Made by a program: the position numbers and the translations under genes. Shown here piece after piece: positions 4,601 through 49,725 of a stretch of 64,000 bases of DNA. Each line of letters starts with the position of its first letter. Position 1 is the first letter of the stretch. The notes beneath the pieces were generated by a model, which saw only the letters and a list, made by a program, of their open reading frames with translations, ran no database searches and was not told the origin of the DNA. The DNA lies in assembly GCA_905178155.1 (NCBI GenBank), contig CAJINV010000001.1, forward strand, positions 3,525,675 to 3,589,674. The letters are read 5' to 3'. This DNA is from Amoebophrya sp. A120 (Eukaryota; Protista; Dinoflagellata).

Positions 4601-7600
4601 GCAGAATCACCGGCTGAGTGCGGAGTACCTGGTGAAAGCGAAAGCGAACGTGAACCTGCAAGACGTGGACGGGAACACGGCGATGCACTTGGCGACGGCG
4701 AAGGGCCATGTAGAGATGATGCTGTACCTGATTCGCGAGGCGCGCGTGCGGCTCGACATCAGCAACGCCGCAAACCGGTACTGGTACGGGATGCACAGCG
4801 AGGCGACCTCCTGGGATGACAAGTTGTTCGGCGACCGGCGGGGGCAGAACGGCAACTGGCTGGTGAATAACCCGTACCTGAACAGCAGTACCCCAGCAGA
4901 TGAAAATGAAACAGCGGGCATCAACAGCACCTCGGCGGTCGTGCCGGCAGACTACGACTTCGATGCGGAGAAAACCATGGCTTTCGTCGCGCCGGGGGCG
5001 CGGCGCCGCGATGAAAACCGGAACCCCAGTCAGGAACTGGTTATGTTGACCAAGCACCCGGCGCCGGGCGGCGGCGGACCCAGCATTGTTCCCGTGGACT
5101 TGCGGTCGGTTGTGGAGCGGCGGAAGGGCGTGCAGCCGCACCAGCGCGGCGGCGGTGGCCTGGGATTTTGCGCGAGTACGGGGAGTTTGATGAAGCTCCG
5201 GGACAAAAGCATGAGCATTCTCGACTCATTGCGATCTGGTGTGGTGATGCACAACAAGAAGCAGCAGGTTCTGGGGGGCGGCTCCTCGTCTACCTCGTCG
5301 TGTAAAAATCATCGGAGAAATAACTCCGTCGACTCGGAGTCCTCCCGGATGAGCTGCGGGAGCACAAATTCGCGGTATTCGGACCCGACGACGACGACCG
5401 CGGCGGTCGACGGCGCAAGCGCGGACTTTTTCTCCACCACGGTGGAGCAGGAGTGGCGCCGGTCCCGCAGGTTATCCAAGGGCACTTCGCTCGGGAGCGT
5501 GCCGGAGGAGCACGAGCACACGCTGGACCACGGCGGAGCGGTGGTTATTTGCGGAGAGCATATGCATGCTTCCTCCAAAGCCGCAACTCGGGCCTCGCGA
5601 TTCTCGGCGATGCCGAGAATCCAAAGTGGCGAGGCGCTGTGGACACTGGACGATGACGGGAACGGTAGTTGTGCGGTGCTGCCACCACCTCCTGTTATGC
5701 CGCCAGCAGGAAATACCCCGGTTCAACGTCCAGATGTTGAGCAGATCGCTGTGATCTCGCATTCGCCTTCAAAAACACGAAAGCTTGATGTGCAGCCCCA
5801 GCTCGGTAGAAGCGCGGACCGCAGGACCTCGGAAATTATTGCCTCGGAGATCGAAGACGAGGAGAACAACTCTGCATCTCGCGCCTCCACGACTTGGCAT
5901 AATGGACCGAGTTGTAGAATTTTTGAGCCAAAAAGTCAACAGCACATTGTCTTCCAAGCGCGAAAGGTCGCGATTCCGCGGAAGAAGGCGAGCCAAGCCG
6001 CCCTGGCGCGCATAAATAGGTCTTGCTCGACGGAGGACGACGCCACGCCCACGAGCGGCACGAGCAAGTTCGCGCACAGCGGGAATGATGCCGTGTCTAC
6101 TTCTGCTACGGGAGGCGGTGCGGGCTCGCAGATGATTGAGATGGGCACATTTGACGCGGGAGCGCCGGAGCGAACGACATCATCAAGCAGCACCTCGGGA
6201 GAAGTAGCGTTTGTAAGCACGCTGGGTGGAGGACCTGGACCACCACCGCATGAGCATTGTGTAGTCGAGGGCTGTAAAAATGCCTCTCGTCTTCGCGAAC
6301 CCGCAAAGTCGCCATCTCCCGAATTGACACGCATCAGTTCCAGGAGCGACGTGGTTGCCCGTGACAACATGATGTCCGAACTAGACGGCGTCGCTGAGGC
6401 TGGTGTCACTGGTGAAAATGGACTGGACAACCACATGAAGAAAGTATCAGAAGAAAATAGCAAATTCGGCGCCTCGGGTGAACAACCTCTAGTACTGACT
6501 GCGCAGCAGGGTGGACGTGAAGAGGGTGACGACAGCTCGACTGTGCGATCTTTATCGCAGCAGCCCGACACCAGTCCGGTTCTTCCGCTACCAAATTTCC
6601 TGCAGGATGCCGCTAATATCACCCGCGGCCGGTCGAGTCCGTGGCCGGAAAGCGGCGGCAAAAATCTGACCCAAGGTACAACAACGACCAGTTCGATGCA
6701 CAGCCAGACGAAAAGTACCACTGCGCAATCGACGGCAAAGCGTTTTTCGAACACGGGCATCCGTGTGAGCACGCTGTTGGACGGCAGTGTGACGCGGGCC
6801 CGGCCGGTGGAAGTGGCGGGCGGCGCGGCGGCCTCGAGCTACAACTGGGTCGGCGTCGACGCCTGGGGAACCGCGTCCACGGTCGAGGTGGAGCAGCCGG
6901 GGCGCACGATCGGAATCGCTCCGGTTCGGGTGGAGCCGACAATGGACGATCCGTACCCGATGCTGCGGACCACGTTGACCCGAACGCATATGGAAGCGTC
7001 AGGATCGAAATCAACAAAATCGAAATGACTTGTGATGCATAAAATCGATATCAGTTGGAGCCTCAGTTTCCAAGTGGCGCATGACAAATTTTGGCAGCAC
7101 CAAAATCCAGTCTGTCGTGCTGTTTGGGCAAAGAGAACTGCTCCTGTCATGCTACTCTGGCAGCACATCGTCTTCCCCCAAACAGGCTTGCAATCGGTCT
7201 CATTTGCCTCCTCTCCAACACAGGCCATGCGTGCCCTACATTTTATGGATTACAAACTTTTTGATTGTGTCGATTTCGATCCTGACACTCCCATAACGCA
7301 GAAGCACTACGTGAACCCCTACTACAGCAAGGACCCGATCGAGGACAACGTAGTCGCCCACATTATCACATTTGAAAACGTCCCCACCCCATAGTTGTAA
7401 TGCAAATCTGCATGCTGAAAATGTTACGCATGCGGAGCCCAATGAGAAGCATTTTTTAGTCGTGTTTTGGAATTTGTCATGCTCCAATCAGCATGGTATA
7501 CTAGATCTGTAATGCTGCTGAGCTACCTCAACCAGCACTACACTACGAGTCCAAATTTGTCATGCAAAACAGCCAAAGCTTGTGGATTTGTCTAGCCGAT

Positions 7601-10600
7601 TCCCCATCTTGACTATGGTATGGGGACGTTTTTATGCAGGATACACATGCTGCGTCCCTGCGGGCTGTCGAGTCTGATTTTCGCCACCGCGGCCCCGCAC
7701 TTCGTCGGAAAGTCGTTTCTCCGCACCGTCGAGGAGGAGCGGCTCGCTCTGAACCCGGAGCAGAACACCGGCCAGGAGGGCAAGTGGAGTCCCACCTACA
7801 ACAGCGCCAAGCGGGCCGGAACGAACGCGGACCAGCCAGACGAGCTGGAGAGGAGACGGTCCGATCGGTCCGGCTCCGACGGGGGCGGGTCCCGGGACAG
7901 CACCCCAAACGTGTTGCTGAGCACCAGAAATTCCCGCTGCAACAGCGCGGACAGCAAGCAGGACCTTTTTGCATCAAAGTGCAAATACAACCAGGACCCC
8001 GCAAGGGGGTTGATGGAAGGAGCTGGTCAAGAGCTACAAGCAGTAGCGGGCCAAAACGAACTACACACGAAAGGAGCTGGAGCAGGGATGTCCCATCCCC
8101 TGTCGTGCACCAGCATCGATTTCAACGGGGGCACCCAGCGACAAGTGCAGAAAATGCTGCTGCGCCGAAACAGCCGCCCACCGCCGAAGCGCAAGGACCC
8201 GCTCGAAAACGTGGACTGGAACAGGCTGGGGCCCTCGGACTTCAACTGCCTGAAGCTGTTGGGTCAAGGAACGTTTGGATCCGTGATCAAGGTCTGCATG
8301 CGGGACGACCCGCGTGTGAATTTGGCAATGAAGATCATCGTGCAGAAGCAATACAAAGTGCAGAACATCGTCAGTCGCTACTACGCCGAAGAGCACGTTC
8401 TGCGAGCGTTAAAGCACCCGTTCATCGTGTTGCTATACGCCTCCTACTCGACCCCGCTCCATTGGCTTCTGGTATGCACAGCTTATTTTATTTTGTGATT
8501 CTGATTGCGAGCCTCTCTTTCAGGAGGTATGTGAAATGAACTTATTTTTGTCGGAGAGTCCGCGAAAAAAGTCTTATTTTATGTCCCAAATAAAGGTGAT
8601 GGAGTACTGCCCGGGCGGGGACCTGCACGACTGGCTCGTGCAAGAGGGGACGCCGGGCTTGCTGCCAATCCAGGTGCTGAAGGCCGGTACGGAAATCTTA
8701 TTGGCGCTGGAGTACCTGCACGGCAAGGGCATCGTTTTCCGCGACCTGAAATGCGAAAACGTGATCCTGTCTGCCCAGAAAACCTGCCGTCTGACGGATT
8801 TCGGGCTCGCCAAGGAGGACATCGGGGCCACCGACACGGACGGGCTGACCTCGTTCTGTGGCAGCTACGGGTACTGTGCCCCGGAGGTGCTGGCGCTGAA
8901 GGACAAGAACCGTCGCGGCGGCGAAATAAAGTCGCCCAGTAGGAACAAGGCGGACGAATTAGTCCGTGGGTTGACGAACGGAAAGGACAACAGCAAGGAG
9001 AGCAAGAAATACGGTACCGCGGTAGACATCTACTCCCTCGGGGTCGTGCTCTACATGCTCGCCACGGGGGGACACATCACGAAAAAGACCGAAACCAACA
9101 AAAAGCGGTCGCCAAACAGAAATGATAAAGCGGCAGGCACCAGGGTGGTCAACACCCCGCGAGATGGTGAAGCGGGAGCAGACGGCGGTAAGCAGGATAA
9201 AAATCTTGCCAGGGCGGGGAGGGCGGCTGGCGTCGACCTGAAGCGAGATCCGTCGGGAAATCTTGTCGTCGACACCGCCGTCAATTCGACGGCCGCGAGA
9301 AATTTTGCAAAGAAGAGTCTGCCGACGTCTATTCAACAGCGACCGCGTAATTCGAGGGAAAAAGGGAAAGAAGACGGTGCGACAGCGGCTTTATTTCAAC
9401 AACATGCACCTCCGGGAACCAAGAACCCGACACTGACGGACCGACCAGCGGTTCTGGTGGACGAAGGCGCAGATCCGCGGAGATTAGATTTTCGGCCGGG
9501 CGACAGAGTCACGGACGTGCTCGGCATCAAAGAGGCGGGTGGAGGAACAGCAGACAGGACTTCTACTAGCAGGGCGAGAGTCAAAATGTCGGTCGCGAAC
9601 GAAAGAGATCCACGTGCTCTGAGGACTGGACGACAAGAGCAGAGGGTTGCCCCATTTGTGGAGACTACAGAGAACCGATCCCGCAGTTCTTCCAAAGCCA
9701 CGGAGGGGAGTAGTTTGGCCGGCCGCCGAGCTGTTCATAGGAATGCCGCAAATAATCCGAATGCAGTAAAGAAAAAGGACCACCAGCACCACGAGGTTTC
9801 CCTGGGCACGGTGGCCGCGGTGCTTTTCCCCTTCAGTAAGAACTTCAATTTTTTGCACCCCTCGGAATCCAGGGGGGTTCTGGACCTCTCGCAAATCGAG
9901 ACCAAGGAGCAGACCGAGCTGCGGTTTCCCCCGAACTCCCCGGAAGACTTGCACTTAGAGCTGGCCTACATGATGGTAAAAGACAATCCCACCATGCAGC
10001 TGCTGGACGAACTGCAGCGGCTGGAAACCCTGAAAAGACAACAATACGCGGCCAAGAAGGCTCTGAACAATACGAATCCTACCCCGGTACCACGGCCGCT
10101 AGCCACCGACAACACCCTGCGGACCACTGGAGGTGGCGAAGTTGGCGACGGGGCGAAAGAAAAACAGCAAAGCGGAAAAATGAAAAAGATAGTGGCCGCC
10201 GGGGAAAAGGAAATGACGGGAACAAGACCGGACCGGAATTCTACAAGGGACGACGCAGCACGACCACACAGACAGGATCTTCGGCATCGGCAGGTGGGGC
10301 CGCCTCCTCCGGCTGGACATCATACTAAAAACCATGTTCAAGAACGGCATGAAGGGACGAGCCAGCAATCTGTTCATTATAACGGCGGTAGCAATCGGAC
10401 GCGGTGGCAGGGTCCCAGCAAGGAGCAGTTACGGTCCGTGAAGGACACCTACGAGCGGTTTAAGCAGCACCCACATTTGCTGGAGCTCGTCTACACCATG
10501 ACGAATCGAGATCCGCACTTGCGCGGGTCCTGCTCCACCGTACGCTCGTCCAAGTACTTCATGAATGTGGACTTTATGCTCGCCTTGGTGAACAGCGGCC

Positions 10601-11946
10601 GGTACTTCCGGGACATGCAGCGCCGGCGCGAGAAAGTGGAAAATCCGTTCAGGCACCGGAGCGGGAGCGGCACGAGCAGCCAATACCCGAGCAAGAGCGA
10701 GTTATGTGCTGCAGGAGGACAAAATGTTGAGCCTGTGGCGGCTGCGGCCACCACCGCAATTAGTGGGCAGCGCTCGTCCAAAAGTAGGGGAGATCGGAAT
10801 TACTATCTTGCCGGGGCTAGTAGGACATCTGGGCAGGTCGACGCGCGGCTACGGCCTCAATGCGAGCGTGAGGAAACTACAGAAGGAACAACCCGTCCGC
10901 TGCCGGTCGTGCACCCGCGCGAAAATACTAAGCCCGTGCGGCCACGTGACGCTGGAGTTGTTGCAACGTCGTCTATGTCGGGGAGAGTTCTTGCAGGAGG
11001 CGCATCTTCACAAGAGCAGGATGAACCACTTCAAACGAGAGCCGGACCCACAGCAGCTCCCGTGATGCCGCCGCTGCGCGATCTTAGCAGGAAGACGCGT
11101 GGCCAACATCAAGAATGGGGCCAACGACCCCCGCCCCTGAGAGATGAAGAACATCGACAGATGCCGGTGGTGCTATCCAACGAGGCTTTGTCACGGCACG
11201 AGAAGAAATTTCCCGCGCAGCACTTTCACCAGGCGAATAACGGGCAGCAGCAGTTTTTTGGCCACGAAACAAGGGGCTCTTCGCCGGAATCGTCTCGTGT
11301 GGCGGGAGTTGATGTAGCGGCAATGGCACCTCCTCTTCATCTGGGACGAGGCGGAGGACTTACACAGGCTGTTGCGCGCGGAAGAAGCGAAGACAGTGGC
11401 CGAGGAGAGACCACTTATTCTGCTCTCCCGCTTCGCGGAACATCAACAAGCGCGACATCATCTTCCACCGCGATGGTGATGCACAGCCAGAACAGTAGTA
11501 CTGATCGAAGCAGCTCCAGTGCTCGGAAGGAACGGGTAAGAAGAACCGTACCAGACACGACAGCGCAACAAGAAGACTTGGATCGGCACGATCGGAGCAT
11601 CTCCGAGGTGGTGGACCCCAGAAGTTCTTACGCGAAGGGCCGCTTTACGACTAGCACCCGGGCAACAATGTCTTCGCCGCTGGACGATTCGTTTTGCGAG
11701 GTCGGCAGGATAGTAAAACCTGGTCGCAGCACGAACAAGAGCACTTCTAGGTCCAGCATTCCGTCCGCTAGAGAGACAAGGCAGGAGATGCTAAACCCGA
11801 CCGGCGATGTTGATGATCGTGATGAACAAGAAGATTGTTCCTTTTTGCGCCAAATCATGGCGCATCCACGGACCACTCAGCTCGACGGGCAAGAAGACTT
11901 TGCTGTTCTAGGTGCTCGAAATGGATCTCTATCGTCTGCTACATAA
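1616..11946 (+). CDS. About 3140-aa multi-pass membrane (XK-related-like) + ankyrin repeats + AGC-family Ser/Thr kinase; exons 1616-3107, 3295-6988, 7301-7363, 7649-8471, 8596-11946
   Basis: TM helices with XK-like motifs (HLVDFGTN, GLYES, SCWTLA). Ankyrin repeats (GHAALHVGA, GKTALCIAA, GNTAMHLAT). Kinase motifs LGQGTFGSV, AMK, FRDLKCEN, DFG, CGSYGYCAPE, DIYSLG. Two GT-AG introns plus two TIR/TSD introns give one open frame of 9423 nt. Confidence 0.75.
6989..7295. mobile_element. Introner E1: TIR element acting as a non-canonical intron (312 nt removed with one TSD copy)
   Basis: About 57-bp imperfect TIR (tatggaagcgtcaggatcgaaatc… / …gatttcgatcctgacactcccata). Direct repeat ACGCA at 6984-6988 and 7296-7300. 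Contains an in-frame TGA. Removal gives …TR-TQKHYVNP…. Confidence 0.85.
7364..7643. mobile_element. Introner E2: TIR element acting as a non-canonical intron (285 nt removed)
   Basis: TIR tatc…aaaacgtccccaccccatagt / actatggtatggggacgtttt…ggata. Direct repeat CACAT at 7359-7363 and 7644-7648. Removal gives …VVAH-MLRPCG… into the kinase frame. Confidence 0.85.
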
Positions 11947-12612
11947 AAGGAAGCTTGCTCTTCGGTGGTATGTGATGCGTAAACATAAAGAATAAAAAAG
12001 GATCATGATGATCTGCTCTTATGACTGTCGACGGCTTTTGTTTATCAGTGGAGGCCTGCTGCGTGGGTGTTGTTCTGCGGGATCTGTTCAAGAGACTGAA
12101 TGACTCTGGCGACTCGAAGCAAAACAAAATGTGCCCATGTCAGAGGCCCGGGGCCGCGCGCGTGGTGCGTATTGGCAAAGCGATGTTCGATACGATTTTT
12201 GTGCGTTTGCAGCGGCGATATCGCTGCATACTTACGAAAATGAATTTAGATATAAGAAAGGAAAGACCAAAGTGATCCTTTTCCGGTTCAGGTTATGGCT
12301 TCGGGATGAATCTGATAGAATTTCTGCAAATGGTTGTTCGATTGACTGAACAAAAGCGGGCCGGAATTGCAATGTTCTTTTTCATCTCAAATGCAGGAAA
12401 GTAAGTGATCTTAATCTATTTTAACGATACGCATTGTTATTTCTTTGACTGAAAAGAAATGCTAGGCGGTGCTGGTCGCTGTTTGCCCAGGGTGCTGATG
12501 CTCTGCGTATGGGCCGATAGCATTTTTAGCAGAGGCTGGGTTAATTTTCGCAACGCATGCATTCCTCCGCTGTTGGGGAAGTAATGCCTTCCTGTTTGTA
12601 GCAGGTTTCGGC

Positions 12613-15600
12613 ATGGATCTTGTCGACAAGACGCGGAGCAGCTGGGGTACCGTGCTGCAAAGGAGGATGCAACGGACGTCTTTTCTTACTGCACTCGGCG
12701 GTAGTACGTTCTCTCATGTTGGCGAGCAAAAGACGCACATCATCGCTGCACACCGGGGGGACATCTCCGGAGCGATAGACGGTCTGCGCAGTACTTCTAG
12801 CAGCCCGACTTCTTGTTCTGGCGGCGACTGCAAAGCAGCCGAAGGTAGTAGCACGGCACCGACGTTTTTGGCGGTGACTCCCGGCTCACCGAGTAGGCGT
12901 GGTGATACGTCTCCAGGTGTAGAAGTGGGTCTGTCAGCGGCGCATCCACCCAGGAGAAAAGGCGCTTGTCTCGGGCCGCCACGTTTGCCTGTAGATAACA
13001 AAAACCTGAAACAGTTCTTCAAGTCGCTTCCGGGCGCTATCTTGAGTGCTGTTCCAGAGGAGGAAGCGACCACGCCCACTCTACAACCGGATCTGCAAGG
13101 AGGCAAAAGCGCAGTTCGGAGCCCCGAATCTTCCGAGAGTGACGATACTAACAGATGGGAACAAAAGAGGAATCCTCTGCTTGAGCTGCGCTCCAAAAGT
13201 GAGGTGCCAACCGGTTGCAAAGTAGATCAACATCTCGGAAGCCATCAAACGAACCCGCCACACAAAAGTTTTCTTTTGCGCATCGGCGAAAGCGGTACAG
13301 CTGCAGGCGGCCGAGGTGCAATAACGACGTTGGGCGATCTTGGATACTCTGACTTGCAGTCGGAAGCGATTAAGTGGCCATTCCGAGGACACCGAAGCAA
13401 ATCCGGCGCAAATGGACGAAGTGGACAGAGCGGAGAAGACAGCAATAGAACCATGACCGCAGATTATACTGCAACACCGTCTTCTACCAATCCGAAAAGC
13501 ACCAGTGTCGCTAAATCCCTCGGCGAAGGGGCAGAGTCAGGATCCGACTTCAAGGAAGGTGGACCTTGTTCCAGTGACGATGTGTCCCAGTTGGACGACC
13601 ACAAGGGGTTCAAGAAGCAGAGTTCGGGGTGGTTCCGGATCGGATTGCGTCAAGCGCAGGAGCCCGGTAGAAGTACGGGTGGAACTTCATTCCGTCGCCC
13701 CCCAGTGGGCGGAACGAGCAGCAGATTTGGAGTTGTGTCCCGGATTTGCCGCGGAGCGCCGGCGTTCGCACGCATTTATGTGCACTTGCCGCCGGTCCTG
13801 GGGGGAGGACGAGGAGGCGCTTTGGCGACGAACCGGGCGGCCTCAGCTTCGTCTACTTCTTCTGGTGTTAAAGCGCGAGTAGTGTCGTCAGAAGAGGACA
13901 AGAACTACTCGTGTCGGCTGTTGGCGGACAAAGATTGCTCTTGCTGTGCGCAAAACCACGAGCCGGCAACAGCTTGCGTTGGATATAATTATAATCCAGC
14001 TAGTTGTCGTGCTCCAATAAATCACTTTGACGTCGGGAACTGCCGTAGTACCTCCGAGGTCGGAGAGGAGGAAGAGTACAGACTTGCAAGACCCCACGAG
14101 GATAGTTTGAATGGCGGGTCCAACGGTAGTATCGTGGGGCGACCGTCGGATCATGACAAGATGGTGGTTCATCTGGTGGCAGAGGTGTGTCACCGCATGC
14201 TCACTGACCTAGCGGACGAAAAAATGCTGTCCTCGTCGTGCTGCGCGGAGATCTCGGTGTCAGACGCCGCCGCCACACTGTTGCGGGACCTCCTGGTGGG
14301 TGCCAGTGAGGACGCAGTTATGTTTTTGCGACGTGCGGACAACTACCGTGTGTGGCGTGCACGTGAGGTCGGATCTGACAAGGACGTCTCGCCTGCGACG
14401 GAGCGTCTGCTGCTAGACATGCTGCGGAAGCGGTTACAGAACGAGGAGAAGAAGCTGCGGCAGAAGGGGGCAAAAACGCAGAATCCGGCGCCGGCCCCCC
14501 AAGAACTACGAGCGAACCAACATGTTTATCAAGCGTGGGCGACCGAGGCGCAGGTCGAGGAGCTGCTGCAGGCCGCGCAGGACCGGAAGCGCCAGCGCCA
14601 ACTCGAGTCGACGTACAAGGAGGTACAACGGATCACCCGTGTCTTGGAGCGGACGCTCGCTTGCCAGTACGCCGCTGAGACCACAGAACCGCTCAGACCA
14701 CAGGACCTGCAGAGGCATAGCGCAGAGATGAAGCAAGGCCATGGCCTCGTACAAATGCTGAAAGTGCAAGTTGTACACCCTGGTGTCCGGGAAGTACAAA
14801 AAGTACATGCGGACAGCACATCAGCAATATCTTCAATCCGAAGCATGTCGCACCAGCACCAGGACGAGTCGAAGGCGGCACCTCTGCGCCGTATTGACGC
14901 TCCAGTGCCAGTTTGCCTCCAGGATTTGACAAGTGACGAGATAACTGACCAAGCACTCGAGGCCGGTGTTTTTGTCGCATTGGACGGCCGCGTGGTAGAC
15001 ATCAAAACCGCCGAGGGCGACGAGTGTAGTGTTCCGGTGGCTGTCGGCGGTGTTGGGAACGGTGAGTCAGTACATCAAGAACTACTACACGAAGGAGCTA
15101 AGAGCTGTGACGCAGCGAAAGAGGAGAGAGCTGAAATCTTCGAGCTCGACAAGAACAAAAACGACGGGGCCGCCGAGCTCTACCAGCATCCGACCGAGGA
15201 GGAACTGCGGGACGATTGGCTCCCAAACAAGGATGAATATGCTGACGAGGAAGTGCGAATGAACGCAAACGAGGACTTCTGCCTGGAACAGATTCTGAGC
15301 GCGGGAAGCAACGACCTGGGCGGGGACGACTTGTCGAAAGACTCTGTGTCGCAAAAACTTTTTCAAGAACTACAAACGGATAAACTAGACGACGTCTCGA
15401 CGGCCGACCTGCTTTCGAATCCCGCAAGCGAAACCGCGATGGAGGAGCCGCTCCCGGAGGAAACCACGCCCTGCCCCGCGTACGACCCGCAGGCGCCGCC
15501 CCACCCCTTGTGCCAAGCGAAACCGGACGAAGACTTGCTCGAGTGCCTGCAGGGAGAATGGGAGTGCTGCTCCGAAGCGGTGCCGCGGGACCTTGAGCAT

Positions 15601-16353
15601 TTCGCGGAGCGTGCGGCGGCGGGGGCGGGGGTGGGCGTCGGCATGAATGCGAACAAGAACAAATCCGCAAACAGCAAGACTACCCCCTGCGACAAAGCGG
15701 AAGCAAGTTCAAGTAGTGCTTGTTCCAGGTCTGGCAGGAATAAAAAGATGGTTCCCGCTTGCGAAGTCACGTACTTGAAGGCGTTCACTGTGGTTGGTAA
15801 AAAAGTGACCGAGCGCCGGCTACGGGAGGTGGTGTCTTCACGCGAGACGGTGCACACGCGCGAACTGCGACTGGAGCCGGCCCGGCATTGGCTGGGGTTT
15901 GCAATGGAAGGTCGGCCACTGGTAATTTACAAGTTTCCGAATATTTTCGGCGGTGCGGTCTTCGTACGGCGAATCGGACGGACGACGTCGATTTGCTACC
16001 GGCGCAAGCAGGATGCAGCGTTATTTTCGGCGGCAGGCCGGGGTCCAGCTCCGGCCTCGTGCAAGAACGACGCGGCAGCCAGTTTAAAAGAGCCGTGCCT
16101 CCGCCCGGATGCAACGCGGGATAATACTACGGCAGCTTGCACAGAAGTTAATACAGCTAGCCCAGATTGTTCGTTACAGCGACAGGTAAACAAAAATGAA
16201 GTCGAAAAGCCGGTAGCAACTACATCACCGGTCGAAGATAAGGTGAAGGATGCAGCCTTCCCAGAAGGTGTTCTTCCACTGGCAAAGGGAGAGCACTGCA
16301 CATACCAGGGGGCGCCGCAGTTGCCGTCGCCCTTTCCCGTGGGCTTGTCCTGA
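12613..16353 (+). CDS. Hypothetical 1246-aa protein, largely low-complexity with a central helical/coiled-coil segment
   Basis: Long uninterrupted ORF with coding-like GC3 blocks. No family motif recognised. Confidence 0.6.
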   Translation: MDLVDKTRSSWGTVLQRRMQRTSFLTALGGSTFSHVGEQKTHIIAAHRGDISGAIDGLRSTSSSPTSCSGGDCKAAEGSSTAPTFLAVTPGSPSRRGDTSPGVEVGLSAAHPPRRKGACLGPPRLPVDNKNLKQFFKSLPGAILSAVPEEEATTPTLQPDLQGGKSAVRSPESSESDDTNRWEQKRNPLLELRSKSEVPTGCKVDQHLGSHQTNPPHKSFLLRIGESGTAAGGRGAITTLGDLGYSDLQSEAIKWPFRGHRSKSGANGRSGQSGEDSNRTMTADYTATPSSTNPKSTSVAKSLGEGAESGSDFKEGGPCSSDDVSQLDDHKGFKKQSSGWFRIGLRQAQEPGRSTGGTSFRRPPVGGTSSRFGVVSRICRGAPAFARIYVHLPPVLGGGRGGALATNRAASASSTSSGVKARVVSSEEDKNYSCRLLADKDCSCCAQNHEPATACVGYNYNPASCRAPINHFDVGNCRSTSEVGEEEEYRLARPHEDSLNGGSNGSIVGRPSDHDKMVVHLVAEVCHRMLTDLADEKMLSSSCCAEISVSDAAATLLRDLLVGASEDAVMFLRRADNYRVWRAREVGSDKDVSPATERLLLDMLRKRLQNEEKKLRQKGAKTQNPAPAPQELRANQHVYQAWATEAQVEELLQAAQDRKRQRQLESTYKEVQRITRVLERTLACQYAAETTEPLRPQDLQRHSAEMKQGHGLVQMLKVQVVHPGVREVQKVHADSTSAISSIRSMSHQHQDESKAAPLRRIDAPVPVCLQDLTSDEITDQALEAGVFVALDGRVVDIKTAEGDECSVPVAVGGVGNGESVHQELLHEGAKSCDAAKEERAEIFELDKNKNDGAAELYQHPTEEELRDDWLPNKDEYADEEVRMNANEDFCLEQILSAGSNDLGGDDLSKDSVSQKLFQELQTDKLDDVSTADLLSNPASETAMEEPLPEETTPCPAYDPQAPPHPLCQAKPDEDLLECLQGEWECCSEAVPRDLEHFAERAAAGAGVGVGMNANKNKSANSKTTPCDKAEASSSSACSRSGRNKKMVPACEVTYLKAFTVVGKKVTERRLREVVSSRETVHTRELRLEPARHWLGFAMEGRPLVIYKFPNIFGGAVFVRRIGRTTSICYRRKQDAALFSAAGRGPAPASCKNDAAASLKEPCLRPDATRDNTTAACTEVNTASPDCSLQRQVNKNEVEKPVATTSPVEDKVKDAAFPEGVLPLAKGEHCTYQGAPQLPSPFPVGLS

Positions 16354-17080: not shown

Positions 17081-17142
17081 GTTGCCCATGGCATGGGCAA
17101 CAAGCATACGAGTAAAGCATGATGCTTTACTCGTATGCTTGT
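17081..17142. repeat. Two abutting perfect palindromes (10-bp and 21-bp arms, 1-nt G spacers)
   Basis: gttgcccatg-g-catgggcaac (17081-17101) and acaagcatacgagtaaagcat-g-atgctttactcgtatgcttgt (17100-17142). Confidence 0.95.
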
Positions 17143-38643: not shown

Positions 38644-39431
38644 TAATGCGCCGGTCGGGTGCTCGGAATCACTTATTTTGATGTATGATGATTTATTTTT
38701 TAACATTTACTTTTTCTACACTACAGGTCACTAGCTATTTCTGGAAATTTTTATTTTGCACGGCTACGTGTCGGAGCTTCAGCTTCAGCTTTTCTTTTTA
38801 CGAGGAGCTCCATTTTCTGGTACTGGTTGAGGAAAATAGAGGAGATAAGCGCAACGCTTTTAGCTTTGTTTTTCGCCAAATACCTACTACAGTTTTGAAA
38901 TTTAAAATTTTCTTTTATCTAGTACTAGTTTGTCGGCAGGAGCCGACTGTTACTAGCTTTTTACCCACGCTACTAACTACCATCATGCTAAGCGAAGCGA
39001 AGCTTCTCGCAAGGAGCAGCGTAGCAACAACATTTCTAGACCCTTTCAATTCCATTTATTACGGTTTCCAACATTGCAGCGCCCTCGCATAGGCCGTTCA
39101 AAGACCCAAAGTCTACGGGGTTGAGTGCCTGTTCGGTTCGTATTCGCTCGTCGTCGTCGTCGTCGTTGTCGTCGGGCGTACTTCATCTCCTCGCCCCCTT
39201 GATATTGCCATATCTTGCAGCTTCTTGAGTCTGCTTCGTCTTCGCCAAGGATCCACTCGCCAGAGACGAGAGAGTCGCACGAGCGTGAGTCAGAGTTCGT
39301 TTGCACAAGAGTTCGTAGTTGCCTTGTAACGGGCGGCTGCTCCTTGAATTTTTGATCATCCGCCGACTAGGCAGACCAGGAGCAAATAATTTTCATGTGA
39401 GCGAGGGCGAGCACGCCATGGTGTGAAGACT

Positions 39432-40291
39432 ATGGGCTGGTTTGGTAGCATCTTCGACGTTCTTTCAGGCCCAGCTAATCTTGACGATGGGCGCGACCAC
39501 CATCAGGAGATTACGCGCTCAGGGGCCCCCGAGTTGGCGCACTTGCACCAACAGCAGCTTCCGGGTGCCCGGTCGCGCAACTATCTGGGCAGCCGACGAC
39601 ATCAGCTTTTTTCGCAGGTACAATTGCGCAGTGGCACCAACATCAAGACCTCGTTCGGCACGCAGGACGATTACTACTGGTACTTTTTTCCGGATAAAGA
39701 TCGACAGTCGCTGCTCGAGCGTGTTCCGTTGTTCAGTGAGATTGACAATCTCGGTTTCGTGCCGCAGAAGCTGGACTCCATCGCGCGGCAACAGGGTATG
39801 TTCAGCGATGGCGGAGAGTTCACGACGTGCTTCCGCCGTCCCCTGGCGCAGCGCCGCCCCGGCAAGGGCCAGCCGATGGTATATCCAAGCTTTCGGCAAG
39901 TGCACGCGGCCGGGTTCGAAACGGCTACGGGGAGCAAGTTGGTGCGGTACCTACTGCCGTCCACAACCTATGCAAAGCTTCCCGGTGATCGAGACCGCGC
40001 CATCGGGGCCCGATTTAACCAGGGCACGGCGGATTCGCCGGACTGGATCTGGTGTCTGTGGAACAATATGCATTGCAAAAGTATCGTACTACGTATAAAT
40101 TGCATTACAAATTTTCCCAAGAAAAAAACTCAATTTGTCATGCTATTTCAGGTAGAAATTTGGATTTATCATGCATATCTGCAATTAGTACGAGTGCAAT
40201 ACTTTTGCACAGGATAAGCAAGGTGTACAAGGACGATGTCAAGACCTCAGACTTCATTCGGAAAGACACACCTGGGCTATGGATACTGTAA
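39432..40291 (+). CDS. Hypothetical protein; 2 exons (39432-40066, 40222-40291) split by introner E3
   Basis: Removing the TIR element plus one direct repeat joins …WCLWNK-VYKDDVK…GLWIL*. Confidence 0.6.
40067..40216. mobile_element. Introner E3: short TIR element acting as a non-canonical intron (155 nt removed)
   Basis: TIR tatgcattgcaaaagtatcgtact / agtgcaatacttttgcacaggata. Near-direct repeat AACAA (40062-40066) / AGCAA (40217-40221). Contains ATTTGTCATGC. Confidence 0.8.
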
Positions 40292-41165
40292 CAGTGTTGA
40301 CCGTGTTCACGTGGTGGTACGGCTTTTGCTGTTAATAGCTGCAGACGAGATCGAGAAGAGAGCTCTCATGTTGTCAGGGCCAGATAATGAACATGAACTG
40401 TTGATGTGGACTTGGAATGTTTGCGAGCGAATGAGCCCATTAAAGAGACGGCTGTCCTCGGTGGACAGAAGAGCTTCGACGGAAAAGAGTCATACTTTTT
40501 TGGTGTCCGTGTTTCATGTCAAATGACCCAGGAGAAGATCGAGCTTCATTTGAGTTGATATACTTGTGTTCACCACCAGGATTGGAAAACTTCGGTTCTT
40601 CGTGATCGGTCTAGCAGAAGTAGGAACGTGTACATGATTGGGGAACTAAGAAGTACTGGCTCGACAGGGAAAAAAGTACATCGGTGTCTTTATTTCTGTT
40701 GCAACGAGCAGATTGAAGATTATGATTAAGGTCAAGTTCATGATAGAAGATCGGGCGCTTTGATCGCCGGGCCTGAAACCCGAGCGCACGAATCGCAATC
40801 GCGTAGGTGATGTCGTTGTTGCCTTTCATCTTTTAAGTTGTGTCTTCAAAATCTATCTTCGACCGTTCTAGTACCTGGCTATAATTCTGTGTTTATTTTT
40901 GGCAGGACTTGAAGCAACGGCAACGCCCAAGAGACGTCGTTCCCCTGGTAGCAGATAGGCAATTGACAGTCATTGCAGCTATTGCTATTAGTGCTTGACT
41001 CGCTCGGTATTCAGGAAGGCGAAGGAGAGGTCGCACAACGACATAATAATTCAGTAGATCGAAGATCTCGCGGCTGCATAGCAGGATCGATTTTTACTTT
41101 GCCGAGTGTACAAATACACACACAGGATCGGGTTCTTCTTGAGAAGGTTTCAGATGTTTTCTTAA

Positions 41166-43402
41166 ATGCCCGACAGGGCTTCCATAATGCCCGAGGACGA
41201 AGAGAACAACCCTGTAGTTGTAACTGCATCGGCGGAGCAAGGCGCAGGAGGCCTCTCACAATCGGAAATGGCGGAACAGGTGACCCCGGAGAAGCCCAAA
41301 GACGCAGGAGCCTCGACTTCCGCCCCGCCCGAGGATGCGGACCAAGCGCCGACGCCGCCGCGCCTGTATTGGCTGGATTGGTGCCGCACCCAGAGCGTGT
41401 GGAACGTGGTATGCGGCCATGTGTGGTGGACGATAAGTGACGAGACGGAGTTCGCGCAGAGTCAAAACGAGACGTACCGGTTTGCGGATTTGGGAAACAA
41501 CAAGATTCCGAAGCCCGGCAAGGTGTTGACAAACAAGGTCACCGACCGGGTGTGGAAGAACAACGTGATGTTTAGCAATGTGTATATGACGTACACGAAC
41601 AACGGGAGCGTCGCGCTCACCGAGTCCATGGCCCGCCAGCGCGAAAACAGCAACATGTGGGAGTACGTCGTGGAGCAGGGCACGCTGCACACCATCCCGC
41701 TCTTTTTCCTACTGTCCGGCTACATCAGTGCGGCGGTTTCCGGGTTCAAGGGGCGGAACACAGTCGCTCCGGTCCTGGATCAGTACCTCGACAAAACGCC
41801 GGATAGTACCACAGGAGGAGCAGAATTTCCGAAACTCGAGAAGTACGTGGAAAAGCTGAGTTCGAAGGTGGGCGAAGACGCCTTCCACCACTTTTGCGCC
41901 CGCCGGTTCAAGCGGTTGATACTTCCGTTTATTTTCGGGTCCGTGTGCAGCGTGATCCCCCGGTCTCTGATGCGAGACGAATTCGGGGCGCTCACTGTGA
42001 TCGAGTCAGAAATGTGGTTCTTGTACGCGCTCTGGGGCTTCGCGTGCGCCAACTACGCCTGGGGCCAGTACGCGCACTACTACAAGGCGTTATTCGAAAT
42101 GGACTACGTGAAAGCCGGACAGAGGTGCATACTGGGCGAGGGTACTTGATTTTTGAAACCGCAACGTGAATTTGTTCCATTTTTTTTGCAACACTCTCCA
42201 TGCTGGATCAGAGTTGTTCCAAAGGCTATTTTTGAGAACTTTGATGTTCATAGAGCAGGTGGCTATGGAAAAAGAAATAAAAACCTAATTATGCATTGCA
42301 GTTGCCGCTCCGGCCTCCGATGCTTTCAAAGAGCAGCGTGGAATGGTGCAAAAGTGGTGCTTGATCTACGGCGTCGTGGCGCAGCTGGTGAACTGGGTGA
42401 TTCCGGTGGTCGCAAACGTGGTCTTTAATTCGGACGGCATGAAGACCTGGTGGTGGTTGACGCTGGGCGTCACCTGCCTGATAACCATGGTCCTGCAGTT
42501 CTTTGCGCTCTTCATGCTTTCCGGATCGCAGAAGGGTATGCACCTGCTCGCGACGCAGTGCGTCGTGCTGTTTTCCATCGTGATGTTTATCCCGATGACC
42601 TTCGTGCTGGCGGCACCGCGCCTGAAGGAAGACGCCGAGTCGGACTTTTTGAGCGTGAACATGTGGTTCGTCATGATGCTGTTTGAGATGCTGTACATGT
42701 TCGGCTACTTCCTCGCCCTCTTCCAGTCGCACCTGTCCCACGTGCGGCGAATGCTGCTGCCGAACCACACCTTTGGCGTCGTTATCCTGCTTTTGTCGGC
42801 CATATGGCCGGTCGCCACCTTCTGGGGGGCGCGGTCGGCACGACGGGTCGGGCCGTTTCTGACCTTCTACGACGACCAACAAAGACTCCTTGGACTGCTC
42901 AGGAGCTGGCTCTGGATGGCCGTGCTCGCAGGTAAGTAGTTAATATGCTGGTTAGGTGGAAGGATAAGTTTGTTGCATTGATCTGTTTCGGTTACCATCT
43001 GTGAATGCTTTTTTCCAGTGATTTTAGTCTTTCTTTCGCCGTAGTTCGTTGTGGAATAGTGATATACGCATGGGTCATGTGGTCGTGATTGCGCGGCAAA
43101 TTTAGCGGACCGAAAATATCCAAAACAAAACAAAACGACCAGCCTTCGCCTACTATTTCGCAAACGGGACGGTGACACCTGCGGTCCACAAACACATCAC
43201 GCAGAGTGCAATGGTGGTGTACGTTTTTCACCGGTTCGCTGAGGAGCTGTGGTTGCGGGCCCTGCTGGAAAAGGACAGCAATCGGGACGAGATTGCCGCT
43301 AGCACGATAGTGCTGGTGCTGCTCAGCTGCATGGGGTTATACGCGATCTTACAATCCAATTGGGTCACCCGACTGATGTTCGGATTAACCAAAATCGCCT
43401 AG
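41166..43402 (+). CDS. Acyltransferase-3 (OpgC/OafA-like) multi-pass membrane protein; introns 42142-42301 and 42932-43142
   Basis: LYWLDWCR…CGH, IPLFFLLSGY, RRFKRLILPF, MWFLYALW and VYVFH motifs. Confidence 0.8.
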
Positions 43403-44107
43403 AGGGTTGCATTTCCTGTCTCTCGGTGATTTGCCCCTGGAGAACTGTCTCTACTAAAAACCTGCAAAGGTTTTTACGAGCGTTTTTTACAACATTATGC
43501 GCACTCGTTTTCCACACTACACTACTTATTACAACATTATCGCTTTATTTTGTGGAGAAGTTTGAGTGTCACATCGATAAACAGATAATTTTGCTAGTTC
43601 ATCCTACCCCCGCTCCACAGCGAGCTCCTTGTGTATTAAAGGTAAAGACTCATGATCTCGACGCAGACTCTCATTGTAAAGATGGGTAGACTTCTGCCAA
43701 CCACTTTATGTGACCGCTTGGTCAACATCCCATCTGCCGCACGGATTTCTAAATGACTCCCCATCCTGTATTTGGCTGTACTGTGCTACTGCCCCGCATC
43801 AGACGCAAAAATTGTTCGTGCATCTTCGGGAGGTATTCCCTTATACCCGTGGGCTTTGATGTCCGTGTTCGAGCCGGTGCAAAATGCCATTTGCAGGAGC
43901 TTTCGTTTTGTATAGTAAAGCAAAACAAGGAAAACTTTGATACTCGGCTTTGGATTTCTTTCGTTAGACAGGTTTCTTGGCTCGCTACAGGAAGAGGAGA
44001 CGAGTCAGCGATATTACCAGCATCAATTTTGCCGCGGCCTAGGCGTAAGGCATCGGAGATTGTTTTTTTCCGAAGACAAAACTAACGTGTCTTCAGTCGC
44101 CGAAATT

Positions 44108-47100
44108 ATGGAAAGTCGGCGACGATTGCTTCGGTGCAGCAGCACATTTACCTCGGTCCACATGTGGCAGCTCTCGTGCAGCTTGCGGTTCGTGGGAAAA
44201 AAACTTCGCATCATCTGTACTCTTTCTCACCTCCTGCTCCTCTGTCTGCTGTTTCTTCTCCATGCGGGTGAAGCTGCAGAAGGTAAAAAACCAAGCGCCG
44301 AAATAAAATACGGAAATGTGAAGCAGGTGTACGTGGTGATGAGCAGCCATTTTGACGAGGGGTACACCGATTTTGCCGTGCCGGTTCTGAACCGGTACTT
44401 TCAAGAGTTTTTTCCCGCTGCGGTGAAAACGGTGGAGTTGCTGAAAAAACGACACCCGAAAACGGAACACACTCGCAACCCACCACGGTTGGTCTACACC
44501 TTGGACGGACCTTGGCTCGCTAGCATGTACCTGCAGGACTGTGCCTTTTTGCAGAAAAAGGGCGTCATTCCGGGTTTAAGTTGTCCGACGGAAGCAGAGC
44601 AGTACCAGTTTCGCCAAGCGTTAAAAGACGGCGACATAGCCCTCACGGCTAGTCCCTTCAACGCGCAAGTGGAACATGGGAGCGGTTTTCTGTTCAGGTA
44701 CGGATTAGAGCTCGTGCGGGGCTTGGCCGGTGAAGTCGGAATATCGCGCAGTCGTGGGCGCGTCACTTTCAGTCAGCGCGACGTGCCCTTCACGACCGTT
44801 GCTGCGCTGCCGATACTGCGCGAGTACGGTGTTCGTTTGGTCAGCATCGGCGAGAATATTTTTTCTTCGGTCCCGAAAATTCCGGCGCCAATTTTTCTCT
44901 GGAGAGAAAGGGAGCAGACGAAGAAATTACACGGCGGAGTGAAAGCTGAACAGGCTGGCCAAAAAAAATCCGACACGGACGAGAATGAGCAGGGATTCGT
45001 GACTATTTGGAACCGAAATTATGGGAACTTCGAGCTTCTTCCCTCCGGCAAATGGGAGTTCACGAGCGAGCCCTTCCTTCTGGCTGACACCGCCTTGGTG
45101 ATCGCCTTCAAGAACGATAATCAAGGCCCTTTCAATGCGACCGAAGTGGAGCAAATTTTCGGTGCGTTACAAATCTTCTTCCCGACCGCAGCACGCCTGG
45201 AAAACGGGATCGTTTCGACCAGTTACGACACTTTTGCGGAAAAGATTTGGCCGCGCCGGCACTCGCTTCCCGTAGTTTCGCGAGAAATCGGGGACATCTG
45301 GCTTTATGGCGTGCAAAGTGACTTCTTGAAGTCTGCCAGCACACGAATCGTGATGCGCGAGGCTGAGAAGTTCATTTGCGGGAAGACCTCGCAAACAACT
45401 TCTACAGAAACACAACCAGGTCTAGAATTCGATGACGACGGGGGCGAGGCAAAGTCGAAACACGACACCACGTCCTGTTTTGACCATTTCTATTTCAGTA
45501 AAAGAGTCGCCGACCTGCAAAAAAACGACCCCGCGCTCTGGCATTTCATGCGGCTCTTCATTGGCAGCACCGAGCACACCTGGGGGCTAGCAGGTAACGC
45601 CCGGGTTGAGGCAGCGAACAAAACAAACTTGTGGAGCAATGCGGGTTTTGATAACGACCGGAAAAGCAACAAGACCTCTGTCTTCAACGAAGTGGACGCC
45701 GCCTACCTAGAACAGCGAAACTTGCACTTGTTCTGGCCGTTGCTGCGCATTTTGAAACGGGACGCGCATCCACTGGGGGATATCCTTCTAGAGCGCCTAC
45801 GAGCTGAGCTTGGGCTCTCCCTGGACGAAGATCTTCACGTCGGAAAAGGGGAAAGAACAAAGAGAACCGAAGACGCCAGCCAGCTTGGCGGGCCGTCAGG
45901 GGAACCACGCGCGAAGATGCTGCCGCCCGCAAAGGACATCTTGTTACGCGCGGACCTCAACGCGCATTTTTGGTCAGAAGTCACAGTTTCCACCCAATCT
46001 GGTGAACTACTACCCGCAGCCTTCTCGGTGTTGATTCCAGAAAGCGAATTGTTAGCATCCGGCCACCTCGTACTTCGAAAAAACTTCAAAAAGACTTCAA
46101 AGATGAGTTCAGTGCGAGTTCAATACGAACGCCGACAAAATCCTATATTTATCATAAAGTCACTTGACCTGTTGCAAAATCGAAGAGAGCCAGCGTTTCT
46201 GTCGAAAGTCAGCTGACTTTGCGTGGAGTTTGCAATAACTCAAATGACTTTTTGCGGAATTTGCACCAAAAAAAGTCAATTGACTTTGTGCTAATTTCAA
46301 GAAAAGCCAAATGCCTTTTCCTGAATTCGGCTCATTTCACAGACAGGCAGCAAAAGTTTGAAGAATGTGCCCAATTTTTTTGCAGAAGTCAGTTGACTTT
46401 TCTGGGAATTAGCATAAAGTCAATTGACTTTTTTTGATGCAAATTCCGCACAAAGTCATTTGACCTTGCCTGGAAGTTGTCAAAAGTCAGGCGACCTGTG
46501 CCCTTTTTGAAGTCAACGGATTTGGGCAAATTATTGAACTCGGATTAAACTCGTAATGAGCTCGCTTTTGAACTCGTGCTCCGGTCTTTTTGAAAACTCT
46601 AAAAGTACGAGGTGGTCCCGTGCTAAGAATTGCTGGTCTGTTTTGATTACCACGGCGCGTTGCGCGGGGTGTTTCAACATCGGGCAACATCGACTGGACG
46701 ACAGACAAGTACAGAAGGAAGCAAACAATACGAGCCAAAAATCTGCACGAATTGTCCACCCGAACTTGAGCCGGGGTACAAAATTGGGCAATATGTTTAC
46801 CAAGCGTTGAGTGCGGCAAACATGACACAGTTTGTCGAGGAATTCGGGACCACCGACGCTTTTGATTTCAGCAAGCCCGGGCTAAAGAAGCATCAAGCAA
46901 ATTACACAGAGTACTTGCCGCGCGTGCGGGAAGTGATTGTTTCCATCGACAGAGGCGGGAGGGGTAGCACGAGCAAGGAAGCAGAAGACGAAAGTGGTGA
47001 AGAGGAAAATTATGGGACATCGACCACAAGAAAAAAGAATTCCATCACGCTTGTTTTGGACTGGGCGGTCGACTGCAAGTTGACAATGTCACGACATTGT

Positions 47101-47928
47101 CTCAGAAGCGACGCGCCTCTTCCATTCGAGGAATACGGGGCGCCTCAGCAAGTCGTGACGCGTTTCGCAATTTCAATTCCTGAAAGGTTTGACAAGAAAG
47201 CGGATACGGCTGCGGAAAAAGCGCACATCAAACAAGACACGGCTGCCGAGATTAAGCTGGATGTGCTTCTGCAAGACAAAAGACCGACCCGCCTTCCCGA
47301 GGTTTCCTGGATTCTGTTCTCTGCGGGGGTTCCTACAGTGCAACAACATGGTGCAAGCACATCACGCTGCCGGGGCCGAAAGTTAGGCCGCTACGTGGAC
47401 CTGTGTGAAGGTGGAGCTGACGACAGTACTATTCCAGGCTCTTTTGCTCTTGCAAGTCCGCACCAGCACGGAGTTTACAGCGAAAGGCCAGAGAAACATC
47501 CCGCGATCGTCTGTGAAAGGACGACCGTAGAGCAGGCCGCCAGTTCTGACACGACCTCCGCAAAAGTTAATAGCTACCACGCACTCGGCGTGTCTCCACT
47601 GCACACAACACTTGTAGTGTTGTGGGACAAGAAGAAGGAAACGGCATTACTTCCGCCCGCTTTCCCGACCCCGTATAATCCACCCGAATGCTCGCCACGA
47701 TTCGGCTTTGTCATTCACGACAATTTGTGGAACACAAATTATCCAGCCTGGTACCCGATCGGCGGCCCTTTTCGCGCAGATGAAAAAAGAGACCAAAACC
47801 TCCGCGCATCCTGGCAAATTTCAACGCAAATAATCCACGAGGCGGTCGGGGAAGATGCAGCAGTTCCTGCGGAACGAAAGCTGCTGCCCGACGGTAATAT
47901 GGCGGACACCACGGCGGTCTTTGTGTAA
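44108..47928 (+). CDS. DUF5054 / GH38-N-like putative glycoside hydrolase; 2 exons (44108-46051, 46633-47928) split by foldback introner E5
   Basis: Hydrophobic leader, VMSSHFDEGYTD, QRDVP, DNQGP, EIGDIWLYGVQSD, EHTWG, KRPTRLPE, LWNTNYPAW. Confidence 0.75.
46052..46626. mobile_element. Introner E5: foldback-type element acting as a non-canonical intron (581 nt removed)
   Basis: TIR ttagcatccggccacctcgtactt…ttcaaaaagac / gtctttttgaa…aagtacgaggtggtcccgtgctaa. 6-bp direct repeat GAATTG at 46046-46051 and 46627-46632. Removal gives …SEL-LVCFDYHG…. Confidence 0.88.
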
Positions 47929-48423
47929 GGGATATACTGAGATTAACTTTAACATCGCCAAAAGCATTTCGCGATTTTTCGTTCCATCTACAAATAAAAG
48001 TTTCGTTTCGGACGGATCCTATTATGTTTCCAATGGCGTTGTACAGCATCGAGTTACAGGGTTGCGGACCTACAGGGCATTTTCTCTGCCTTCCAGCGTG
48101 CGTTTGAGTTAGCACGTATCATGGACATTGTTCCCCACTGATTATAGTTCTTGAGTATACGAGTGCAAGATGTTCTTGAGGGACACCAAAACATGTCAGT
48201 GCGGATTTTTAGCTGAGAATGAGTTTTGTGAGAGTTGTCGTTCAAATCTATCTCGTCGGAAAGTAGAGAGAACGACACAAACGGAAAAATAAGCGGGCTT
48301 ACCTCATCAACGTGTCACGTTTCCTTTGTCTATACTAGACTTGCACTCTCAAGCTACTAGAACTTTAACCACTGGCTCCTTACTGCAAGAAGCAAACCAA
48401 AAGTTCAGATCGTGCCTGCAAAA

Positions 48424-49725
48424 ATGTCTTTCTTCAATTGCCGGATTTGCACCGGTTCGCTTTGGGGAGAGCCGATCAAGCAGCCAGAGCCGAAACCGCG
48501 AGCGGATTTGAACAAGGCAGCAAAAAAGCCCGGAAAAGCAAGTATAGGTCGCATGGTGTGACAAAGATTTAGTTTGTTTTTGATGTAGAGTTGGGCATCG
48601 TTTGCACGCAGGCATGAATTGGATCGCCGGTTATGGAGTGTTGCACACAAATGTTCCACATCATTCTTACAGAATTCACAAAACGGGATGCGAACGAGAT
48701 ACAGGCAGATTTGGCGAAATGGATCGACTTCTTGCATCCGCGCGCGCTCTATCAAATGCAAAAATGTCTGGGTCTGGAAGAATGCAAGATTTGTCATGCA
48801 TATTTCTCATGACCCATGATGCCTGTAATGCATGACCTAGCATCGCAGACTTGTAGAGGGCTTCCTGATGCACCTTCCGCATGAGAAATGCCCTGCCCGT
48901 GTAGCACAAACTGCACCCCTCTTGCTGGTCATGTAATACAAATTTTTTTAGATTCCAAAAACAGCATGACAAGTTGCAATCTTCCAGACCCAGACATTTT
49001 TGCATTTGATACGCTCGACTTTTTCCCAGACCAGGAGGCTGTGAAGAAGGTAGGACTGCTGTATAGCAAGTTCGCATGAAGATGAAGCCGTGATAAAAAA
49101 AAAAAATGAATATGATAGACTCTTTATCAAGAATAAATCTTGGTCTTCAAGAAATTGCTGCAACAACTTTCAGGTTTTATCCGAAATCCTGAAGAACATC
49201 GACAAGAAGGATGATCCGATTTTGGGGAGCGACGAAAAATGCGTGATGTGGCACGGCGACTCGACGAAGGTTAACAACGACGGCGAGGAAAGCCAAGCAG
49301 TTGTGCGGATAGTCAAACCCGGTATCATTTTTTTGCGACGAGAGAGAATGAAATTGAATCAATGCAACTTTCATGCGATAGAGGCTTACTGGTTGTGGTT
49401 TGCATGCTGCGTAGCGCACACACTTTCGTCCTTATTTGATTTCCTAGAGCACCAGACCGGCAAGCAAGGTTGTATCAAAAATTCGACAGGTGACACGCTC
49501 GAGAGTGTGACTTTCGTGAACCGCGTGCTGCCCTTCATCTTCGCGGACGACGAGTCGTTTGAGGAGCTGATGCAATTGCCCAAGGAGCCCTTTGCCATGT
49601 GCTGCGGCAACCAGCTCTGCGTGAACATGTCCCACATCTCGTTCCAGAAGCGCCGCAACTCCAAGGTGGCCGAAGAAGCCGGAGAGCAGGGCGAGGGAAC
49701 ATCGTTCACCGCACAGGCGAAGTAG
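48424..49725 (+). CDS. Small protein with His-Me finger / homing-endonuclease Zn-loop-like C-terminus; about 6 exons, 5' structure uncertain
   Basis: DDPILG…CVMWHG…VNRVLPFIF…CCGNQLCVNMSHI. GT-AG introns at 48542-48611, 48630-48704/48708, 49050-49173 and 49322-49489, plus introner E4. Confidence 0.65.
48750..49011. mobile_element. Introner E4: TIR element within a coding gene
   Basis: Near-perfect TIR of about 50 bp (first 31 bp exact: tatcaaatgcaaaaatgtctgggtctggaag). Direct repeat CGCTC at 48745-48749 and 49012-49016. Confidence 0.9.

Follow-up and report, generated by a model that had tools for sequence, protein, structure and literature searches.

A spaced internal motif shared by introners with divergent terminal repeats in Amoebophrya sp. 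A120 as a putative binding site for a common mobiliser

How the introners of Amoebophrya move and how they are spliced is stated as open in the available sections of PMC7789003, where these elements number tens of thousands. For A120, the same sections describe inverted-repeat (IR) ends composed of TAT, 7 nt and a run of at least three A, direct repeats (DRs) of 3–5 nt, non-canonical splice ends and 1,954 families; according to them, neither family-specific IR motifs nor a putative A120 transposase were found, and U1 small nuclear RNA (snRNA) was not detected. Here we analysed a 64,000-nucleotide stretch of the Amoebophrya sp. A120 genome (assembly GCA_905178155.1, contig CAJINV010000001.1, positions 3,525,675 to 3,589,674 of the forward strand; ‘the window’), which raises a narrower question. 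A first-pass annotation had noted that four TAT…ATA introners in it, E1–E4, differ in their terminal inverted repeats (TIRs) and nevertheless share an internal 11-mer, ATTTGTMATGC (M is A or C). What does this motif mark? We put at roughly 55% the probability that it is an internal site bound by a single mobiliser common to these elements, probably an integrase-like transposase, the subunits of which would lie on one helix face near a two-part end.

The four elements, and a fifth of a different class that serves as a control, are given without strand.

E1, 6989..7295: 307-bp TAT…ATA introner, TIR of 37 bp, target-site duplication (TSD) ACGCA (6984-6988 and 7296-7300)
E2, 7364..7643: 280-bp introner, TSD CACAT (7359-7363 and 7644-7648)
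E3, 40067..40216: 150-bp introner, imperfect TSD AACAA/AGCAA
E4, 48750..49011: 262-bp introner, TIR of 38 bp, TSD CGCTC, within the biggest cluster (57)
E5, 46052..46626: 575-bp control element of a different class, TTA…TAA ends, 6-bp TSD GAATTG

With at most one mismatch, ATTTGTMATGC matches the window 14 times, 11 of them within the 999 bp of E1–E4; the number expected by chance is 1.81. All six exact matches fall inside these elements, which agrees with the first-pass annotation; every exact and variant copy that it listed is present, and the coordinates and TAT…ATA ends of the elements are as it gave them. It overlooked the copies at 7110, 7142, 7247, 48821, 48840 and 48933, the element E5, a recurrent spacing of 31–33 bp and the internal resemblance of E1 to E3 over 81 nt. 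Outside the elements the window has no motif excess (9 matches versus 7–17 in shuffles). The sites are as follows.

E1 site, 7028..7038, plus strand: 39 bp from the left end, inward
E1 exact motif, 7079..7089, minus strand
E1 degenerate pair, 7110-7120 and 7142-7152, plus strand: 32 bp apart, 7110 lying 31 bp past 7079
E1 site, 7247..7257, minus strand: 38 bp from the right end, inward
E2 first site, 7393..7403, plus strand: 29 bp from the left end
E2 pair, 7472 and 7505 (7472..7515), plus strand: 33 bp apart
E2 pair, 7555 and 7586 (7555..7596), plus strand: 31 bp apart
E3 sites, 40102 (minus), 40133 (plus) and 40164 (plus) (40102..40174): 31 and 31 bp apart
E4 sites, 48789 (plus), 48821 (plus) and 48840 (minus) (48789..48850): first two 32 bp apart
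E4 sites, 48879, 48933 and 48964 (48879..48974), minus strand: last two 31 bp apart, last 37 bp from the right end

A metagenome scan for the motif pair returned at least 127 stretches; among the matches listed, 66 came from one assembly, JACKZZ01, which supplied every outside element analysed here (123,763 bp after merging). These loci were chosen via a motif-bearing element in the neighbourhood. A motif-blind finder, which relied only on TA[TC]…[AG]TA ends, complementary arms and a repeat of 5 nt, identified 132 elements in them and 0 on one local shuffle. Seventy-six of the 132 do not fit the search pattern, and 69 of these carry ATTTGTMATGC with at most one mismatch, 36 of them exactly (shuffled fraction, 0.003). 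The elements are 75–457 bp in length and form 17 sequence clusters, with E1–E4 each in a different one; all four elements are repeated in the genome (clusters of 6, 17, 25 and 57 for E1, E2, E3 and E4, respectively), with other flanks also present. Of the 16 clusters that have pattern-free members, 14 contain the motif; cluster 16 (75 bp, low complexity) is included in both totals, 76 and 16, and was left out from the matrix analysis onward. The motif is genuine and extends beyond the four elements in which it was first noticed.

Without the TSD filter, an exact 5-bp duplication was found in 75 of 95 elements and one of 4 or 6 bp in 0 of 95. The arms end in TAT..ATA in 267 of 272 cases and in TAC in 5, the finder having demanded TA[TC], and positions 11–13 are A in 238–249 of the 272 arms; arm heads such as TATGCATTG recur among clusters. 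Some details noted for the four elements proved narrower than proposed. The 5-bp TSDs are exact in E1, E2 and E4, but E3 has one mismatch (AACAA versus AGCAA). A G follows the right TSD in all four, but we rejected this as a rule: among further elements with an exact TSD, only 22 of 109 have it when read along the contig, and 22 of 90 when read along the gene. That the TIRs do not align past their termini holds only for E1 (1–4 matching bases among the 12 at arm positions 4–15), whereas E2, E3 and E4 share 4–8 of the 12; the arms of these three fit the A120 consensus of TAT, 7 nt and at least three A, and the E1 family is without the A-run. Among the 90 oriented JACKZZ01 insertions, 37 have a G as the final TSD base, a weak excess over the background of 29% (p = 0.01, uncorrected), which would yield a GT-like donor one base ahead of the element.

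Among the matches listed, 61 metagenome stretches came from other records and were set aside; the ones inspected proved to be either a 38-bp satellite or an unrelated repeat, and the single element that the finder reported in this group (L066) has no motif. Viral scans gave 2, 0 and 22 loci, the first 2 being a single hairpin locus, and a prokaryote scan gave 1; the finder identified no element in L001, L002 or L130–L152.

A matrix built from the pattern-free elements refines the motif to RAYYTGTVATGC(W), with 333 matches versus 4 in shuffles. Of the 14 cluster representatives, 12 have refined-motif sites paired on the same strand 31–33 bp apart, where the null gave 1.7 on average and at most 8 in 20,000 draws, and 82 of 169 adjacent same-strand spacings in the pattern-free elements fall in this range. 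After exclusion of elements that match the search pattern and of CpG columns, motif core columns are conserved at 0.89–0.97, TIRs at 0.88–0.92 and other internal columns at 0.67–0.83 in all five clusters tested; placing the sites on the majority sequence of each cluster gives a slight bias toward conserved columns. Spacer identity is 0.54 within clusters and 0.35 between them. Could the pairs be a functionless relic of an ancestral 31-bp tandem repeat? The clusters are alike internally (81 nt between E1 and E3, and cross-family hidden Markov model matches) and the interior of E5 is repeat-like; however, cores held at about 0.9 between neighbouring columns at 0.67–0.83 and spacers at 0.35 between clusters make such a relic very improbable.

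The placement of the sites suggests a geometry. Inward-pointing sites near the ends group at about 29–33, 36–42 and 52–60 bp, with a period of 10–10.5 (Rayleigh p ~0.003, from 22 non-independent points). Pairs three helical turns apart, together with first inward sites about 29–31, 37–42 or 52 bp from the end, would set several subunits on one DNA face beside that end. Elements with mismatched TSDs score lower on the motif (22.9 versus 29.9, n = 12 versus 63, p = 0.04). Read tables contain at least 61 variable positions, 8 of them in window sites; compared by hand, other copies are nearer the motif at 6, one is a free position and one departs from the motif. Both observations are signs of decay at rest, and would fit a cycle in which copies with intact arrays are propagated and resting copies decay.

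Whether the motif acts as DNA or as RNA bears on who reads it. Codon usage allowed the gene strand to be inferred for 111 of the 131 elements; among 29 segments with multiple calls, 28 are consistent, and the remaining validation used training exons. Relative to the gene, 275 sites are sense and 228 antisense. The E2 family, the sites of which lie nearly all on one strand, is inserted 9 times in sense and 7 times in antisense, and 10 elements have antisense sites only; the motif appears to work whichever way it faces in the host gene. An RNA signal, whether a protein-binding site or something akin to a branch point, that enables the spliceosome to act on these introns might be expected from the location of the motif in spliced introns that lack GT–AG ends (only 9 of 90 outside elements are readable as GT/GC..AG in any register) and from the slight sense surplus. 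The antisense-only elements and the insertion of the E2 family both ways, in presumably spliced copies and with strand called from codon usage, argue against it, as do the absence of the motif from the spliced E5 and of any Rfam match in the window; we consider it quite unlikely. The motif may resemble Rbfox, Sm-site and ApiAP2 sequences.

The first-pass annotation had further proposed that the TIRs are constrained mainly as RNA stems. Mismatches between arms comprise 86 of G·U type and 95 of A·C type in the sense strand, no G·U bias, and an arm is nearer its own partner than another copy’s arm by only 0–6 points, significantly so in two of five clusters (inner arm); it is therefore as sequence that the arms are held. 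With conservation across copies at 0.88–0.92 and little partner-specific likeness, the proposal did not stand. Mismatch rates are 22–60% at positions 4–8 and 0–6% at positions 1–3 and 11–13, which suggests a two-part TIR: a TAT that does not vary where the cut is made, a spacer free to vary (positions 4–8), then an A-tract with a family-specific inner arm. Folding predicts a hairpin for 109 of the 111 elements, and the hairpin may therefore also serve splicing; sense and antisense folding do not discriminate (56 of 111). Splicing would then rely on the end-to-end hairpin and not on the motif.

Excision is seen in the window itself. The RNA-like runs X3, X5 and X6 are one sample; the nature of X3 is guessed, yet its contigs skip the GT–AG introns 720→870 and 3107→3295. 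Single X3 contigs carry the joints 6982→7295 at E1 (312 nt, 307 + 5) and 7358→7644 at E2 (285 nt, 280 + 5), and X3, X5 and X6, not X1, carry 48744→49012 at E4 (267 nt, 262 + 5). The unit removed at these three joints is the element plus one TSD copy, none can be read as GT/GC..AG in any register, and excision restores open frames in a frame test. The host of E1 is an ankyrin-plus-kinase gene (Pfam), the frame of which is open after excision. Splicing of E3 is only suggested, because the X3 contig departs from the genome at 40063 and its final 138 nt are not visible. Left unspliced, E3 also keeps its frame open (261 aa versus 234 aa spliced; window 40062-40221). Its TSD mismatch makes an AG immediately past the element, and the contig end at 40063 implies that a left-copy TSD base is retained, which narrows the splice register.

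The control element separates the two functions. E5 is excised exactly in a single X3 contig (joint 46045→46627, 581 nt, 575 + 6) and has 0 copies of ATTTGTMATGC within two mismatches; because it splices without the motif, a mobility signal would be separable from a splicing signal. It holds all nine window matches to its own palindromic 16-mer, AAAGTCANNTGACTTT, at spacings of 49, 31, 36, 31, 82, 31, 36 and 31 bp, and such 31-bp pairs of its own motif are as expected if every transposon class has its own site. E5 is foldback-like, its motif and that of E1–E4 both include GTCA, and its TTA start resembles A25-type ends (PMC7789003, available sections). The proposal of a DNA-level site common to TIR-divergent families is thus upheld, by inference, by a motif that is found in 14 of 16 clusters, conserved like the TIRs, strand-independent and absent from E5.

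A site on DNA could also be read by the host. After masking, the remainder of the loci has 55 motif matches versus 7–20 in shuffles, part of which are missed or decayed elements. By eye, at least five introns that look like GT…AG and have no TIR hold a motif pair 31–33 bp apart.

L025, 952/984: intron motif pair, pattern-selected
L030, 1501/1533: intron motif pair, pattern-selected
L034, 1255/1286: intron motif pair, pattern-selected
L057, 407/440: intron motif pair, not pattern-selected
L065, 2397/2430: intron motif pair, not pattern-selected

On their sequence, these introns may be old introners turned canonical; frame tests did not fix their boundaries. A decayed TAT…ATA arm pair lies downstream of a GT start at L095 244-373.

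Pairs that survive in TIR-less, canonical-looking introns keep alive a host DNA-binding protein on the paired sites, serving as an accessory factor in transposition or as a DNA mark for splicing at non-canonical ends. Strand independence suits any DNA binder, E5 repeats the 31-bp spacing with a motif of its own, and A120 is without a found transposase and a detected U1 snRNA in the available sections of PMC7789003. HMGB1, a host factor, helps Sleeping Beauty at inner sites (PMC5224488, available sections). However, E5 is precisely spliced without this motif, the remaining window DNA, including RNA-supported GT–AG introns, shows no excess of it, the spliced copies in the window bear private motif damage, and a class-specific motif better fits specificity encoded by the element. 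We regard a host protein as possible but doubtful. A stronger form, in which the helically phased array is a DNA-level intron mark, bound by a host protein on either strand, that licenses removal of consensus-less introns in a lineage with no U1 snRNA found and outlives the TIRs as introners become GT–AG, seems to us rather unlikely.

We return to the shared mobiliser. E1–E4 are short TAT…ATA transposons that code for nothing, duplicate 5 bp of target and reside in genes as introns, and TA ends combined with a 5-bp TSD would point to an integrase-like DDE enzyme of the kind published for A120 family 38. Several points weigh against this. A domain search of 91 open reading frames (ORFs; 95 of at least 150 aa in 43 larger loci, 4 duplicates omitted) gave neither a transposase nor an integrase, and no long or autonomous partner element was seen in 124 kb of loci and the window. 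Outward-pointing sites have no helical phase, and a test of singleton versus shared alleles is confounded by saturation. The clusters are not independent, because their ancestry is probably shared. The motif pairs in the TIR-less introns are poorly explained by neutral decay, and selection at the level of the host is inseparable from selection at the level of transposition, because nearly every copy’s ancestor was also an intron. The array is a putative binding site, proposed from sequence comparison.

Other observations in the window concern the elements and their hosts. Summed depth in run X1 is ~52,000 over E3, ~320,000 over E4 and ~45 elsewhere, which is not a copy number. Several X1 contigs fuse the left part of E4, just past its first motif, to the right arm of E3 (48749-49011; 40179-40216), which suggests modules common to or swapped between families. 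The kinase beside E1 and E2 matches an A120 protein (154 of 154 and 1116 of 1121 residues, 99.6% identical) that begins at 8013; once E1 and E2 are precisely removed, the ankyrin and kinase frames become continuous (3285-11943), and the public model of this gene may be split. The E4 host gene (48424-49722) has Cys/His-rich stretches, presumably reminiscent of a His-Cys box, and its last exon has no Pfam match. A GC-rich insert at 55389-57811, with a 677-aa stop-free frame, an (AAT)n tail, a flanking duplication of ~14 bp and no Pfam match, looks like a 5′-truncated non-LTR (long terminal repeat) retroelement, judging from these features.

Elements of this type are known. A120 introners have the same IR ends, DRs and non-canonical splicing as E1–E4 (PMC7789003; PMC12130899), and published family lengths of 278, 305, 149, 209, 321 and ~107 bp resemble the clusters here, a match in length only (PMC12130899). 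The available parts of PMC12130899 list 58 A120 families, mostly of unknown superfamily; one of them, family 38, called Ginger-like (dataset sd07), shares TA/TA ends and a 5-bp TSD with our elements but is far longer (808 bp), with ORFs of Copia-like homology. IS3EU and GingerRoot likewise have TA..TA termini, TIRs and no base-specific target (PMC10045372, PMC6839031), but their available descriptions give a TSD of usually 6 bp, and GingerRoot TIRs of 100–150 bp, whereas the duplications here are 5 bp, none of the 95 being an exact 6 bp. Ginger1 and Ginger2, as far as described there, have TG..CA termini in place of TAT..ATA. Short length, TIRs, TSDs and the lack of a transposase domain in the 91 locus ORFs are traits of miniature inverted-repeat transposable elements (MITEs). 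Euglenid and Fritillaria introns are similarly MITE-like, with TIRs, TSD-like repeats and non-canonical ends; those of euglenids are described as held by conserved RNA structure, whereas the arms here carry no wobble or compensation signal (PMC11282704, available sections).

The internal array has parallels too. The transposons hAT, CACTA, Mu and Tn7 have subterminal sites, and the motif here is likewise a short site repeated inside the ends and conserved together with the TIRs. In the available sections of PMC5224488, Sleeping Beauty has extra transposase sites inside its ends, in an IR/DR arrangement to which the motif may be likened; its inner site repeats the terminal one, whereas the motif is no copy of the TIR, is spread along the full length of the element in both orientations and is paired at 31–33 bp. 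A match to TGTCATGC in that paper is a primer only. The A120 papers, in their available parts, treat families as separate and contain no internal motif or spacing rule (PMC7789003; PMC12130899), and the motif string is absent from 12 of the 14 supplements of PMC12130899. We found no earlier report of the ATTTGTMATGC motif in the literature, although one may exist in subscription papers, in theses or in figures outside the search; the 17 exact-string matches concern, by their titles, unrelated subjects. The elements are thus already known, and a common, spaced, conserved and strand-independent motif within them appears to be undescribed. One conserved, spaced site links 14 or more clusters as members of the same class, and the motif pair could serve as bait for pull-down, as a signature for the autonomous element and as a marker of old introners turned canonical.

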